Shown in pieces: positions 311-4,840 of a DNA stretch of 6,383 bases. Position numbers and translations under genes: made by a program. Positions within the stretch are counted from its first letter, which is position 1. Every line of letters starts with the position of its first letter. The stretch is from a virus (taxonomy: Duplodnaviria > Heunggongvirae > Uroviricota > Caudoviricetes). Location of the stretch: IMG/VR virus record IMGVR_UViG_2778261541_000005; one strand, written 5' to 3'. Below the pieces are notes generated by a model. The model did not search any database and was not told the DNA's origin. It worked only from the letters and a program-made list of their open reading frames with translations.

Positions 311-1087
311 CTAGTAAGTGCCGCGCTTGTTAGGATTCACACCGTACTTTCTCAGCGCTCTACCCGTCCCGCTATTAAGCACCTTTGAAGCCTGAGCGTT
401 AGCTGCATCTGTGAAGGTACTTTCACCATTCTTGACGCTGACGCTCTTAGAACATGCTACACGGGCTTTTAACGCTTCATCTGATAGCTCGCTTGCCGAA
501 TAGCTAAATAGCTCTTTGCAAGTCAACATAGGGCTTCCAAGGCTCGTTGTAGTATTGCCAGTGTTCTTCTTAGAAGTTGTTCCACCGTCATTTGTTGTAG
601 TGGCTTTACCAGTAGCCGCACTAATATCAGTCTGTCCAACTACAGCTTTAAATTCCACACCTTGGAAAGTCATCTGAATACGAAGACCATTAGAGATAGT
701 GTGCTCTTTAGAAGCTTTAAACTGTGTAATCACTGAGTCAGTGATAGAGATTCCATCTTTAGCAACTACGGTGATAAGCTGCTTCTGGTCTCGCCATTGT
801 TCAACCGTAGAAATAAAGGTTTCTACAAGTTGCCCTTGTCTGGTTAATAGAACTGAACCTGTCGAATCAATAACTACGACGCCACTAATAGAGATAGTCT
901 TAGGTGCTCTCTGAACGTTATCAGTGATAGTTTGCCCTGATTGCATAGCCTGAGTTGTCACCATCATCGGTGAGTCATAGTCCATCTGTTCAGTAGCTGT
1001 TAAGGCAAGAAAAGATTCTACATTATCTCTAAGGTGAAAATAGATACCATCTTTACCTGAGTATCTAATTTGCTTTGTGTCAAACAT
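311..1087 (-). CDS. putative tail structural protein, distal-tail-protein-like (258 aa), with a Thr/Gly/Asn-rich linker and a C-terminal extension
   Basis: ATG at 1087 preceded by an AGGAA Shine-Dalgarno. First gene downstream of the tape measure gene, and about the size expected for a distal tail protein. Low-complexity linker [20 protein letters not shown] separates an N-terminal body of roughly 150 aa from a C-terminal domain of roughly 70 aa. Function is inferred from position and size only. Confidence 0.6.
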
Positions 1088-1260: not shown

Positions 1261-3327
1261 TTATTCCTCTGGGTAAGCTGAGCTAATCAAGGTATCTTCC
1301 TGCATACGATTAATATGCGATGTGGTTCTTTCATCAATAACCTTTCCATCAAGTACCGTCTGAGTTGTGATATTGATTGTCTGAGGCTGAATATTTACTG
1401 ACGGCTTGATAACCTTTAAATCCTGTGTGAATGTTTCCACTCGACCTTTCAGAGTATTTAATGCTTCATGTGAAAACTGTGGGGCATCTTTTGATTTGCC
1501 CTGAACCATAGCCCATAAAACAGCGGCTAAAGAGTTCATGTCACCAGTCAATGCTTGGTCTGTGGGTTCCACCTTTGACCTTACAACTTTATCAATTGGA
1601 TTATCTGACTTACTCATCTGACGTTCATAGAACGGTTTGACAATGGCATTAATCACATCAGTTGTCATACCGACAATCATTACTCTGGTAATTGCATCAG
1701 CTACAGATAATTTTCCTTTACCACCTTCAACACTACCGGAACGTGAATTAATTCTTCCTGCTGCTGTATTTGCTACATTTCCAAGCGTGGAAATAGCCCT
1801 AATTAAGCTCCAGATGCCACCTACAGCACCAATACCAGACCTTACAGCGACAATACCAGCAAGTCCCTTTAATGCACTTAACAGGCCATTTGCGATACCA
1901 TCAGCTACAGCTTTTTGAGTGTCATTTAATTCTCTGTAAGCAAGGGTCACTCTGTCAAAGAATCCCTGCACTCGGTAGCTAATCGTGGTTAAATCATCAA
2001 TACCGTTTGACATACTTTTCATCAAGTCGCCAAAATGTTCACCAAGATTTTTAGATTGACCACCTAGTGAATTAAGTAAATTAGTCAGTGACCTTGTAAA
2101 ATCTACAAGACCTTCCTGTGAACCATCGAACATTAAGGCCAGATTATTGTTCCATGAATTACTTAAGCGGCCTAACTGCGTCTGAGTAGAGTTAATAATC
2201 TTTTCCCATCCACCAGCTTTATCAATCATCCTTCCCATTTCAGCGGATACTTTAGGGAGAACATCTTTAGAAAGAACCTTACCGTCTTTCATGGCCTTGT
2301 CTAATTCTTCCGTAGTCATCCCAAGGCTTCTGGCAAATAACTGAAAAGCACCTGCCATTCTGTCACCTAATTGACCGCGTAGTTCTTCAGCCTGAATCTT
2401 TCCTTTAGAAGCCATCTGTTCGAAAGCTTTTAGAATCCCATTAATTTCATCAGTGCTTAAACCCATTAATCTGGATGTACCAATCACATTACTAAATAGG
2501 GATTCTTTCTGGCCTGCATCCATATCACCAGCACCAGCGGAAAACTTAGCAAAACTGCTTAATGTTTCAATCTGGTCAACACCAGTATTATTAGCAAGAT
2601 TCTTAACAAATTCTGTAGCTCGTTTAGCACCTTCATCACCTAAAACGAATTGTGCCGCTCGTTGTGATGCTTCTTTTTTCAGACCAACTTCCATAACCTT
2701 CTTGTAAGCTTCTAAGGCTGTCTGAAAACTATAAATGGCTGTACCTGCTTTGATTGCACTTGTAGCTAATACATCCAGACTATTTGAAGCATTTTCACTG
2801 TGATTATTTTTGCTGGTGGTCTTATTAAACTTAGAAAGTGTTTCACGTAGATTTTGATTTAACTTTGCTAACTCACGATTAAAAGCTTCGTTTCCAAGTG
2901 TCTTGGATTTACTGCTTAAGTTGTAATATTGGCTCTTAAAATACTTCTCAAGCATAGGATTAAAGTCACGAAGCTTGCTCATATTCACGCTATGCGCTGC
3001 TGTGATTGCTCTGTTTCCGCTAATTCGTGGCTGTCTTGCTGCTTTAACAGTTTCTTCAACCTGAGTTTTGAACTTAAAGACCTTCGTAGATTTGGCTCTT
3101 TCCTCCAGCTTATTAAAAGTCTGGTTAATCTTCTTTTCCATATTCCCCAAAGAGGCTGTTAAATCCTTATCCATGCTCTTTGGGTTAACTTTAAACGCTC
3201 TATTCAAATTACGTTCAATTCTTTGTGCTGACTGCAAAGCTGCCTTTTCAACTCTTTGCAAGCCTTTAATAACGTTTTCATTGAAGCCTAGCTCAACAAT
3301 AAAACTATCAACTGTAAATTTGCTCAT
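1261..3327 (-). CDS. phage tail tape measure protein (688 aa)
   Basis: ATG at 3327 with an AGAGGTGA Shine-Dalgarno 8 nt upstream. Long helical, Lys/Glu/Gln-rich N-terminal region; segment ELRGQLGDRMAGAFQLFARSLGMTTEELDKAMKDGKV resembling the conserved tape-measure domain; Gly-rich hydrophobic stretch LKGLAGIVAVRSGIGAVGGIWSLIRAISTLGNVANTAAG typical of these proteins. Confidence 0.85.
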   Translation of the reverse strand: MSKFTVDSFIVELGFNENVIKGLQRVEKAALQSAQRIERNLNRAFKVNPKSMDKDLTASLGNMEKKINQTFNKLEERAKSTKVFKFKTQVEETVKAARQPRISGNRAITAAHSVNMSKLRDFNPMLEKYFKSQYYNLSSKSKTLGNEAFNRELAKLNQNLRETLSKFNKTTSKNNHSENASNSLDVLATSAIKAGTAIYSFQTALEAYKKVMEVGLKKEASQRAAQFVLGDEGAKRATEFVKNLANNTGVDQIETLSSFAKFSAGAGDMDAGQKESLFSNVIGTSRLMGLSTDEINGILKAFEQMASKGKIQAEELRGQLGDRMAGAFQLFARSLGMTTEELDKAMKDGKVLSKDVLPKVSAEMGRMIDKAGGWEKIINSTQTQLGRLSNSWNNNLALMFDGSQEGLVDFTRSLTNLLNSLGGQSKNLGEHFGDLMKSMSNGIDDLTTISYRVQGFFDRVTLAYRELNDTQKAVADGIANGLLSALKGLAGIVAVRSGIGAVGGIWSLIRAISTLGNVANTAAGRINSRSGSVEGGKGKLSVADAITRVMIVGMTTDVINAIVKPFYERQMSKSDNPIDKVVRSKVEPTDQALTGDMNSLAAVLWAMVQGKSKDAPQFSHEALNTLKGRVETFTQDLKVIKPSVNIQPQTINITTQTVLDGKVIDERTTSHINRMQEDTLISSAYPEE

Positions 3328-3674: not shown

Positions 3675-4385
3675 TCAAAGTGCCTTGCTATACTTCTGAG
3701 AAATCTTAGTAAGCTGCTCAATATCAGCCTGCATAGCAATCTTCTTCTGCGTTTCATAGTCACTGATTAGTTGCTTCATAGCTCTAAGCTGGTTAGCAAG
3801 CTCTTGCTTAAATCTGTTTAATTTTTTGCTATGACGCTCAAGTAGATTCTTTTCAGCTAACTGACAAATCTCTTCATCTGTTTTATCAGACAGTAAAATA
3901 TATGAACCTGTACCGCGTGAAGCTGGTCTAACATCAATTAAACGGAATCCTTCAGGGATGTTTTGAAGAACTTTTGAGATATTCTCTCTTGCTGTACCAA
4001 AACCATCATTATCTTCAACTGAGTAATATACGAATGGATTTTGTCTAATTTCCACTTCAATATCAAAATCAGTTGGCTTCTCAGTCTCTTCAAAGTTCTT
4101 CACATTGTCGTAAGCGTCATCTAGTCTAAGGCGCTGTGCTTTTAGCAGTGGGTAATATTCACGCTCAAGCTCAAGTAGTGCTTCAGTTTTGCAGATATCA
4201 GGCATTTCTTGAGGCTCAGGGGCTACAAAGGTAATTTGCTTTGGTGACATCTTTAACTCTTGCTCAAGTGCAATTCTTTCATCGTGTTCTTTACGCTGAA
4301 TAGTGATAGCTGGATGTTCACCCTGTGGTGACCAGTCACCGAAGCTATCAATCACTTTGCCATTAATGTAAATATCATTTGTCAT
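3675..4385 (-). CDS. hypothetical acidic protein (236 aa) with predicted coiled-coil C-terminus
   Basis: The ORF track starts this frame at a GTG at 4430; the ATG at 4385 is preferred because AGAGGA lies 6 nt upstream. Strongly acidic; C-terminal heptad-like segment ELANQLRAMKQLISDYETQKKIAMQADIEQLTKISQKY. No family recognised. Confidence 0.7.
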   Translation of the reverse strand: MTNDIYINGKVIDSFGDWSPQGEHPAITIQRKEHDERIALEQELKMSPKQITFVAPEPQEMPDICKTEALLELEREYYPLLKAQRLRLDDAYDNVKNFEETEKPTDFDIEVEIRQNPFVYYSVEDNDGFGTARENISKVLQNIPEGFRLIDVRPASRGTGSYILLSDKTDEEICQLAEKNLLERHSKKLNRFKQELANQLRAMKQLISDYETQKKIAMQADIEQLTKISQKYSKAL

Positions 4386-4393
4386 TGTTTTTC

Positions 4394-4496
4394 CTCTTCT
4401 AAGTAGGTATTCAGTTTTTAAAAAGCACACCTGACAGCCTACGAACTTAGAAGAGACTTAAAAGCGTTTGCCAAGTATGCTTTTTAAAAACTGAAT
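4394..4496 (-). promoter_or_regulatory. structured 5' leader of gene 3675..4385: 19-bp perfect inverted repeat plus 11-bp anti-Shine-Dalgarno-like repeat
   Basis: ATTCAGTTTTTAAAAAGCA (4409-4427) is the exact reverse complement of TGCTTTTTAAAAACTGAAT (4478-4496), with a 50-bp spacer. Inside the spacer, ACTTAGAAGAG (4445-4455) is the exact reverse complement of CTCTTCTAAGT (4394-4404), which overlaps the GAGG core (4393-4396) of the Shine-Dalgarno. Confidence 0.5.
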
Positions 4497-4597
4497 GACC
4501 CTAGATAATTTCTTATAAAGGGCCATTCATAAGGTGAAGAAATTAAAAGAACATCTAAAGGATTCAATAATGAATTGAATGAACAAAGACTTTTGAG

Positions 4598-4626
4598 ATG
4601 ACCTCTTATATAGTTTGAGAGGTCAT
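4598..4626. repeat. hairpin, 9-bp perfect stem (ATGACCTCT / AGAGGTCAT) with 11-nt loop
   Basis: Arms at 4598-4606 and 4618-4626 are exact reverse complements. Intergenic; no U tract on either strand, so not a canonical terminator. Confidence 0.45.
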
Positions 4627-4720
4627 GTAGCGAAAAGCATTGCACCTTTCCAACTCAGAATATCCATCCATCGGATTATTGAAAGAAAAATAAGAGAGAA
4701 TTGCTCTCCCTATATATACA

Positions 4721-4749
4721 ATTATGTCATGCTCAAGGTTATTTGTCAA
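4721..4749 (-). promoter_or_regulatory. putative sigma70-type promoter (TTGACA-17 bp-CATAAT), minus strand
   Basis: On the minus strand: perfect -35 TTGACA (4749-4744), 17-bp spacer, -10 CATAAT (4726-4721). Sits just downstream of the peptide ORF stop (4775) and about 330 nt upstream of gene 3675..4385. Confidence 0.45.
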
Positions 4750-4774: not shown

Positions 4775-4840
4775 TTATACTTTAATAGATGCACCTGCAA
4801 TCATACCAATCAATACAAAACAGATAATCACCAATTCCAT
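4775..4840 (-). CDS. candidate small hydrophobic peptide (21 aa, MELVIICFVLIGMIAGASIKV), not in the ORF track
   Basis: ATG at 4840-4838 overlaps the TAA stop of the 109-aa gene (TAATG); GGTGGTG Shine-Dalgarno-like motif 5 nt upstream; TAA at 4777-4775. One predicted transmembrane-length hydrophobic segment. Confidence 0.3.
   Translation of the reverse strand: MELVIICFVLIGMIAGASIKV

Follow-up and report, generated by a model that had tools for sequence, protein, structure and literature searches.

A conserved long hairpin with an anti-Shine-Dalgarno loop ahead of a phage tail-gene run: a candidate brake on translation in enterobacterial islands

What is the role of the nested inverted repeats that lie directly ahead of the gene for a 236-amino-acid (aa) protein in the viral DNA record IMGVR_UViG_2778261541_000005 (IMG/VR, Caudoviricetes)? 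The whole analysed stretch of 6,383 nucleotides (nt) is referred to as the window. The gene is encoded on the minus strand (3675..4385, ATG 4385-4383) and is the first of a run composed of the 236-aa gene, a 67-aa gene, a tape measure gene and a Dit-like baseplate gene. A first reading, made from the letters of the DNA only (the sequence-only reading), had proposed that the repeats form a translational switch in the leader of the 236-aa gene, with a protein operator or the terminal repeats of a small inserted element as alternatives. The repeats are interpreted here as a conserved cis-regulatory leader RNA of this gene, in which a loop carried on a long stem hides the Shine-Dalgarno sequence (SD) by means of a pseudoknot and represses translation. 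The probability of this interpretation is put at about one half. As judged by comparison of related sequences, the hairpin is most likely a built-in translation brake that has not been described before.

The hairpin is encoded on the minus strand and contains three parts, a 5' arm (4469..4496), a loop of 32 nt (4437..4468) and a 3' arm (4409..4436). The arms were identified by repeat search, folding and covariation, and the loop by repeat search and folding. In the repeat search the two arms (4409-4436 / 4469-4496) are each 28 nt long, 89% complementary and separated by 32 nt. The outer 19 bp of the resulting 28-bp stem (4496-4469 / 4436-4409) are perfect (4409-4427 / 4478-4496) and lie just 5' of the ribosome-binding site (RBS), at the coordinates given by the sequence-only reading. 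All three mismatches of the stem, which that reading had missed, become G-U pairs when the minus strand is read, and the plus strand has A-C at these positions. When spacers of 3-100 nt are allowed, the longest perfect repeat of this kind in the window measures 19, and 100 dinucleotide shuffles gave a mean of 9.6 and a maximum of 12. The number of 19-bp perfect inverted repeats expected by chance is about 6e-6, which bears out the earlier statement that such a repeat is very unlikely to be accidental. Folding, which had been suggested as a check, gave a stable hairpin for the minus-strand RNA (-46.4 kcal/mol, z = -6.4), and none of 200 shuffled sequences was equally stable.

The loop of this hairpin contains an anti-SD segment, UCUCUUCUAAGU (4445..4456, minus strand), that forms 12 contiguous pairs with 4404-4393. 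The target strand, ACUUAGAAGAGG (4393..4404, minus strand), was defined by repeat search and pairing and includes the SD, GAGG (4396-4393). The complementarity appears in the repeat search as a second inverted repeat (4394-4409 / 4440-4455), and its core (4394-4404 / 4445-4455) is the exact 11-nt complement that the sequence-only reading had reported. The 11-mer overlaps the GAG of the GAGG, and an added U-G pair extends it to a 12-bp helix across the whole GAGG.

Related leaders were collected by pattern and protein searches from genomes of Escherichia, Salmonella and Citrobacter and from metagenomes. About 110 of them were usable, and these contain 87 unique sequences immediately upstream of the start codon. 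A 20-mer of the leader, GAAAGGUGCAAUGCUUUUCG, was the bait for most loci, but the Citrobacter leader was not chosen by it. The architecture is kept in all of the approximately 110 leaders, which belong to at least five sequence types, and folding of each type by RNAfold yields the long hairpin. Its arms occur in 24 distinct pairs; the window, for example, has AUUCAGUUUUUAAAAAGCAUACUUGGCA, and type B has UUUCUUAAUAGAGCAUCUUUAAU. The hairpin is 85-95 nt long, with a stem of 22-29 bp containing 0-3 mismatches in types A-D (28 pairs in the window) and a loop of 30-36 nt in all types.

In an alignment fitted to the stem, 95.5% of the cells are paired and both sides have changed in 19 of 30 pairs. 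None of 500 shuffles reaches the observed value, and partners slid by 1-3 columns give 0-5. Because this padded alignment was fitted to the structure, a plain MAFFT alignment analysed by RNAalifold was added. With 13 raw sequences, one Citrobacter leader included, the unfitted analysis recovered the same stem, in which 12 of 20 pairs are compensatory and hardly any are broken. The sequence-only reading had named conservation and compensatory change of the repeats among homologues as one of the tests of its proposal. The stem is conserved among the relatives, and the changes in it are compensatory.

The strand on which the stem is maintained can be read from its imperfect positions. On the gene strand, 84 of the non-Watson-Crick positions are G-U and 23 are A-C, and in whole islands the helix is 24-29 bp long on the gene strand versus 19-23 bp on the opposite strand. 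The G-U excess and the longer sense-strand helix are better explained by a transcript of the minus strand than by a palindrome in the DNA. These comparative patterns show selection on the stem at the RNA level, on the mRNA strand.

The same asymmetry does not suit the protein operator offered by the sequence-only reading, since it is unexpected for duplex DNA. The terminal repeats of an inserted element do not agree with the copy number either, which is 1-3 hairpins per genome and one per island. The host island, which is described below, encodes two serine recombinases, and palindromic DNA can bind dimeric proteins. A flipped loop in a neighbouring leader hairpin (T2, in loci L056 and L069) shows that DNA-level events have taken place at hairpins of this region. 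Even so, a DNA-level element of any kind (operator, recombinase site or terminal inverted repeats of a small insertion) is very improbable. The hairpin always occurs with the same SD flank, its loop is not flipped in any locus, and the covariation of loop and SD presented below does not fit such an element. We know of no operators or invertase sites with 28-bp arms separated by 32 bp.

The long hairpin is the only such hairpin in 18-20 kb. It is carried by 222 of 5426 E. coli genomes, at 1-3 places per genome and 248 in total, and each of these matches spans 80% or more of a query in which the SD is included. A dispersed repeat resembling miniature inverted-repeat transposable elements, repetitive extragenic palindromic sequences or enterobacterial repetitive intergenic consensus sequences was rejected on this copy number and on the constant SD context. 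An intrinsic terminator was rejected as well, as the stem is A+U-rich and the 3' arm is followed by ACCUACUUAGAAGAGG, with no U-tract; the terminator scan made no call at 4409-4496 on either strand. The scan for tRNA and tmRNA found none.

The complementarity between loop and SD is shared by the relatives of the window. For 86 of the 87 unique sequences the loop-SD duplex is calculated at -13 to -22 kcal/mol. The exception, L016, results from the way in which its loop was parsed, and the contiguous-pair analysis finds 11 contiguous pairs in it. The contiguous loop-SD helix is 8-13 bp long in all variants and ends 1-11 nt before the AUG, and the RBS lies 2-22 nt past the 3' arm. The pairing partners differ among the types. 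They are CCUCUUCUAAG(U) with (A)CUUAGAAGAGG in type A, UCUUCUAAGUGU with ACACUUAGAGGA in types B and D, and UUCACCUCU with AGAGGUGAA in types C and E, where the helix is shifted from the 5' flank to the 3' flank of the GAGG. A matrix of the energies of all loops with all SD regions is block-diagonal, with -14 to -22 kcal/mol for cognate and -5 to -15 kcal/mol for other-class combinations. Shuffled loops match the observed energy in 1-37 of 1000 trials per type.

The leader of Citrobacter braakii has diverged in its upstream part and has retained the promoter, the terminator-like hairpins T1 and T2 and a hairpin of type D. In this leader CACACUUAGAAGG is paired with UCUUCUGAGUGUG over 13 bp, two of which are G-U. 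The hairpin types have been reassorted with respect to N-terminal variants of the gene, whereas the SD flank always accompanies its hairpin. The comparisons show that the loop has been kept complementary to the SD region and has been re-matched where the SD flank differs.

The loop of the window (4437-4468) is also complementary to 4075-4116, which corresponds to codons 90-104 of the 236-aa gene (-32.7 kcal/mol, z = -4.6 versus shuffled coding sequence). This second complementarity is limited to the window, L007 and L005 and is missing in other combinations of hairpin and gene. Because it is absent when the hairpin meets other gene variants, we leave it out of the core mechanism. A further target site or the remnant of an inverted duplication could account for it.

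How do the long stem and the loop-SD helix relate to each other? The sequence-only reading regarded them as mutually exclusive, so that the leader would alternate between an open and an occluded site. Both helices do exist and are conserved, and in an RNA lacking the 5' arm the anti-SD helix is the minimum-energy fold (-21.3 kcal/mol), so that a processed or internally initiated RNA would be off. In the full-length leader of the window, however, the enforced anti-SD helix with the long stem broken has an energy of -34.1 versus -46.4 kcal/mol, which is 12.3 kcal/mol worse. At a cost of about 12 kcal/mol for breaking the stem, the two helices do not count as evenly matched alternatives. Both arms are transcribed before the SD emerges, and the promoter scan of the window found no sigma-70-like promoter inside the hairpin. 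No conserved partner that captures the 5' arm was found, and the window also does not contain the T1-T2 spacer of its relatives. A switch between two exclusive folds is therefore regarded as distinctly improbable. The part of the earlier proposal that stands is an RNA-level element with a real, conserved and re-matched anti-SD/SD pairing, and the part that falls is the pair of competing states. Any switching is more likely to occur between the formed and the unformed pseudoknot, or to follow processing.

Leaders that sequester the SD and are read from two promoters (T4 gene e, IS10 fold-back inhibition) are comparable in that only some of their transcripts have the SD bound by an anti-SD segment lying upstream. 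The arrangement is reversed here, where long transcripts would fold the stem and only 5'-truncated transcripts would fold the simple anti-SD hairpin.

The alternative to exclusion is the coexistence of both helices. The energy of the pseudoknot was calculated as that of the hairpin whose pairing segments are kept single-stranded, plus helix stacking, plus a penalty of 5.5-9.6 kcal/mol. By this crude sum, a structure with both the stem and the loop-SD helix is estimated to be 1-12 kcal/mol more stable than the best nested fold for each of the 11 representatives. By a crude estimate of reach, the linkers suffice in nearly all variants; in type C the loop-side linker is 2 nt and the tail linker is 14-22 nt. 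The loop is complementary to the initiation region 3' of the hairpin over 8-13 contiguous pairs in all variants, as is characteristic of H-type pseudoknots that act as translational operators. In the pseudoknot operators of rpsO/S15 and T4 gene 32, a loop pairs 3' around the initiation region and blocks or traps the ribosome. These operators have short stems and a pseudoknot that is stabilised by a known protein, whereas the stem here is 22-29 bp long and the pseudoknot is predicted.

In the proposed mechanism, the long stem would remain folded, and the anti-SD segment of its loop would reach the SD beyond the 3' arm. The stem and the loop-SD helix would together form a loop-to-3'-tail pseudoknot that covers the SD and holds the translation of the downstream run of tail genes low by default. 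In most relatives this brake would add to the effect of one or two intrinsic terminators of the leader (T1, T2). Relief would come from loss or opening of the loop-SD helix, for example by an RNase III cut in the long stem or by a factor of an infecting phage. The coexistence of both helices, the repression that results from it and the means of its relief are inferred.

Several points weigh against this brake. The linkers of the window would be almost fully stretched, with a reach of 9.1 nm versus the 7.8 nm needed, and they are too short in L083, L101 and L104. The pseudoknot energy was summed crudely, with a penalty that is generic and no steric term. The fitted alignment (A3) was padded to put each sequence's own helix in register and so leans towards structure. 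Polymorphisms within types are few and favour pairing weakly (5 wobble-compatible internal changes versus approximately 3 breaks), and those in the loop-SD helix are too sparse to decide. The covariation of loop and SD comes from only three specificity groups and Citrobacter. A stem of 22-29 bp is longer than would be required of a scaffold, and this may point to an additional role. Transcription of the leader, its start site, its processing and the effect on translation are all deduced from the DNA sequence.

The length of the stem is central to a second alternative, in which the hairpin is an element of RNA processing or stability only (an RNase III site or a 5' stabiliser) and the loop-SD complementarity is a by-product. 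The stems of 22-29 bp have few or no mismatches and are longer than ordinary regulatory hairpins. They provide the nearly uninterrupted double-stranded RNA of about two turns (at least 20 bp) that is typical of RNase III hairpins. The position just 5' of the SD, between the upstream gene block and the downstream operon, would also suit such an element. The RNase III hairpins of the lambda N-leader and of T7 intercistronic regions are large and lie directly 5' of the SD, within a long leader that is preceded by a strong promoter. The stem described here is likewise long enough for RNase III, and cleavage would alter the accessibility of the SD. In the lambda N-leader it is the base of the hairpin and not the loop that involves the SD, and no nut-like element was identified here. 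Processing by itself leaves unexplained the re-matching of the loop to the SD flank in three groups and Citrobacter, the poor pairing of shuffled loops, and the conserved loop length and anti-SD position. This explanation is accordingly considered quite unlikely.

A third alternative accepts the antisense function of the loop and places its action in trans. According to it, the hairpin is cut out of the leader, for example by RNase III acting in the stem, and the stable stem-loop blocks the RBS of transcripts of the same specificity, as an immunity-type repressor with exchangeable specificities. Relevant precedents are the c4 RNA of phages P1 and P7 and the CI RNA of P4. In c4 the a'/b' segments pair with a2/b2, and processing by RNase P and the sequences seqA, seqB and seqC of P4 are further details of these systems. 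The existence of c4 and its participation in the control of ant have been documented (PMC8201110). The c4 RNA (immI operon, Rfam family C4) and the P4 CI RNA share with the present hairpin a non-coding stem-loop in the leader of the transcript that it controls, a constitutive promoter upstream, a loop complementary to the ribosome-binding region of the next gene, and antisense and target that have changed together in variants. In every leader examined here, the antisense segment lies in the gene's own leader and the loop is complementary to the downstream RBS, which is the C4-type arrangement. The differences are that a single stem of 22-29 bp with one large loop is present here and gives no covariance-model match, that there is no sign of RNase P-type processing, and that the controlled genes are the tail-module run of a small island, rather than an antirepressor or replication operon.

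The layout of the locus matches the trans model, as a promoter that looks strong and constitutive comes first and is followed by the non-coding leader, the terminators, the antisense stem-loop and, on the same transcript, the target RBS. The loop/SD pairs form at least three specificity groups with weak cross-pairing, a pattern that resembles the heteroimmunity of P1 and P7. Layout and specificity groups are fitted as well by action in trans as by action in cis. The near-perfect stems would be good substrates of RNase III on length, and as genomes carry up to three islands, action in trans could matter. On the other side, cmscan with Rfam 15 of the window and five loci of types B-E gave no match to C4, IsrK, any other bacterial small RNA or any riboswitch or cis-regulatory family at E <= 1, and the only Rfam matches on the hairpin were sub-threshold plant miRNA precursor models. 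The processing and the stable small RNA are conjectural. At least one genome, that of O157:H7 Rafaela_II, holds two hairpins of the same type A, which heteroimmunity does not predict. The lengths of the loop-side and tail-side linkers are inversely related, as is expected for contact in cis and not in trans. A trans-acting antisense RNA is the main rival of the brake and is considered possible, if rather unlikely. RNA-OUT of IS10 also has a long stable stem and a loop that pairs with the translation-initiation region of its target; it is transcribed from the opposite strand, whereas the present RNA is encoded on the same strand, upstream of its target, and has no Rfam match.

The cis-acting brake would form the last part of a long leader. 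The gap of 450 bp upstream of the gene contains a promoter, a 5' hairpin, a (GATG)n tract, the 20-mer and a second hairpin, with optional inserted hairpins in relatives. The part upstream of the long hairpin (4497-4749 in the window; 1290-1640 in L001) is a conserved, modular and structured RNA that is apparently non-coding. This upstream part matches no Rfam family; it could act as an attenuator or represent a small RNA of its own.

The leader promoter (4721..4749, minus strand) is of the sigma-70 type and near consensus, with a -35 element TTGACA (4749-4744), a 17-nt spacer and a TG-extended -10 element CATAAT (4726-4721). It scores 11 of 12 plus the TG extension, and the same call is made in L001. 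The promoter is nearly invariant in alignment A1 and in 10 loci found by pattern, and transcription would start near 4714. It is followed by a 5'-proximal hairpin, GGGAGAG / CUCUCU (4693..4711, minus strand), that is listed as terminator-like and precedes a U-run (4692-4683) in the window. The stem of this hairpin covaries among loci (GGAAGAG/UUUUUCC, AGAGAGA/UCUCUCU), and the U-run is missing in many relatives. When the full-length window is folded, the U-run (4683-4692) pairs with the purine-rich SD region (4386-4397). This pairing is probably incidental because many relatives do not have the U-run.

A tract of the tetranucleotide GATG at about 4665-4676 (minus strand) varies from 2 to 5 copies across loci (L039, L044, L006, L007) and could reflect slippage-prone change of length. 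The leader core, the 20-mer used as bait (4631..4650, minus strand), includes an AAAGGUG that resembles an SD, with an AUG behind it. The core is unchanged throughout A1 and in each of the 10 promoter-selected loci, and it has diverged in Citrobacter. Its conservation in the loci found with it is uninformative because it was the search key. The AUG, 2 nt after the AAAGGUG, opens a reading frame of 5 codons in the window (MLFAT) and of 11 or 23 codons in relatives, of which only the first residues are conserved. This short open reading frame (ORF) could encode a leader peptide or provide a decoy start.

The second leader hairpin, AUGACCUCU / AGAGGUCAU (4598..4626, minus strand), shows compensatory variants among loci, namely GGCCUUUCAG/CUGAGAGGYY and GGCCUAUUUAG/CUAGAUAGGCU. 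Most relatives contain one or two hairpins resembling intrinsic terminators, T1 and T2. T1 (GCCCUAAC..UUAGGGC followed by a U-run) is called by the terminator scan in L001 and is missing in the window. T2 is present in the window as a degenerate terminator-like hairpin, GGCCCU..AGGGUC (4497..4524, minus strand), with a broken U-tract (AUUCAG), and adjoins the 5' arm of the long hairpin in all relatives, where it has the form AAGCCCU..AGGGCUUUUU right before the 5' arm. The loop of T2 is inverted in L056 and L069 compared with all other loci (AAACATAATCTGTGA versus TCACAGATTATGTTT), which represents a flip between its arms. Upstream of the promoter, an unlisted hydrophobic ORF of 21 codons (MELVIICFVLIGMIAGASIKV) is found at 4775-4840 (minus strand) and overlaps the stop codon of a 109-aa gene by one base. 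Small hydrophobic ORFs, some of different sequence, are found at the matching position in relatives.

The 236-aa protein has no match in Pfam, PHROGs, NCBIfam or PADLOC. All of its 3099 homologues are either unannotated or named 'transposase' without any domain, a label of NCBI that is carried by hundreds of records and looks unfounded because it has no domain support. An AlphaFold model of the protein, of mediocre quality (pLDDT 71), consists mostly of long helices and gave no significant fold match in BFVD. Annotation searches of the window identified the tape measure gene (1261-3327, minus strand) and the Dit-like baseplate gene (311-1087, minus strand). The Dit-like protein is approximately 70% identical to proteins of Felix O1-type phages and provides the only link to Felixounavirus in the phage database. 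Near and distant searches with the window DNA, and a search with the 236-aa protein, gave no match among 50,697 phage records.

The region is chromosomal in 471 of 5426 complete E. coli genomes (about 9%), O157:H7 included, where it occurs 1-3 times each, and it is also present in E. albertii, Salmonella and Citrobacter. In strain JX21CE35 it is an island that occupies about 11 kb and is inserted between tonB and yciI (L007 4175-15163). This island contains, in order, a large serine recombinase, the baseplate, tape measure, 68-aa (67 aa in the window) and 236-aa genes, the leader, a 107-aa gene (109 aa in the window), small ORFs, an HNH endonuclease, an adenine methylase and a small serine recombinase. 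The exact protein of the window is found at the tonB-yciI site in other assemblies too. In O157:H7, a 13.4-kb version of the island splits a DUF72 gene (yecE region) between yecN and yecD (L124 1507-14881). On the basis of size this island is probably SpLE2 of strain Sakai, which is 13,459 bp long (PMC7430833). In the only study to test the SpLEs, excision did not occur (PMC2669165). The tape measure and the Dit-like baseplate are the only recognisable structural genes of the island. Literature searches on the island, on SpLE2 and on small RNAs of O157 prophages brought up no functional data for this locus.

The occlusion of an SD by an upstream complementary RNA is an old principle, and the class of mechanism is not new because the hiding of an RBS in this way is well known. 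The new aspects are a leader RNA that is unannotated, belongs to no Rfam family and covaries clearly, and a very long stem that bears the anti-SD segment in its loop and exists in at least three mutually mismatched loop/SD versions. The hairpin precedes the only recognisable structural genes of an island that is carried by 471 of 5426 complete E. coli genomes. If it is a lock on the tail cassette, it would allow experiments to address directly when these islands are switched on and for what reason, and it may also serve as a compact natural part for translational control with orthogonal specificities. A more speculative and doubtful view makes the hairpin a repressor RNA that sets the specificity of a family of small mobile islands, SpLE2-like, 11-13 kb long and bounded by a large serine recombinase, whose exchangeable loop/SD 'immunity types' would silence the tail cassette until a helper or target phage infects. 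If that were true, the island would disturb phage tail assembly or borrow particles, and it would represent a new satellite or defence element with an RNA lock.

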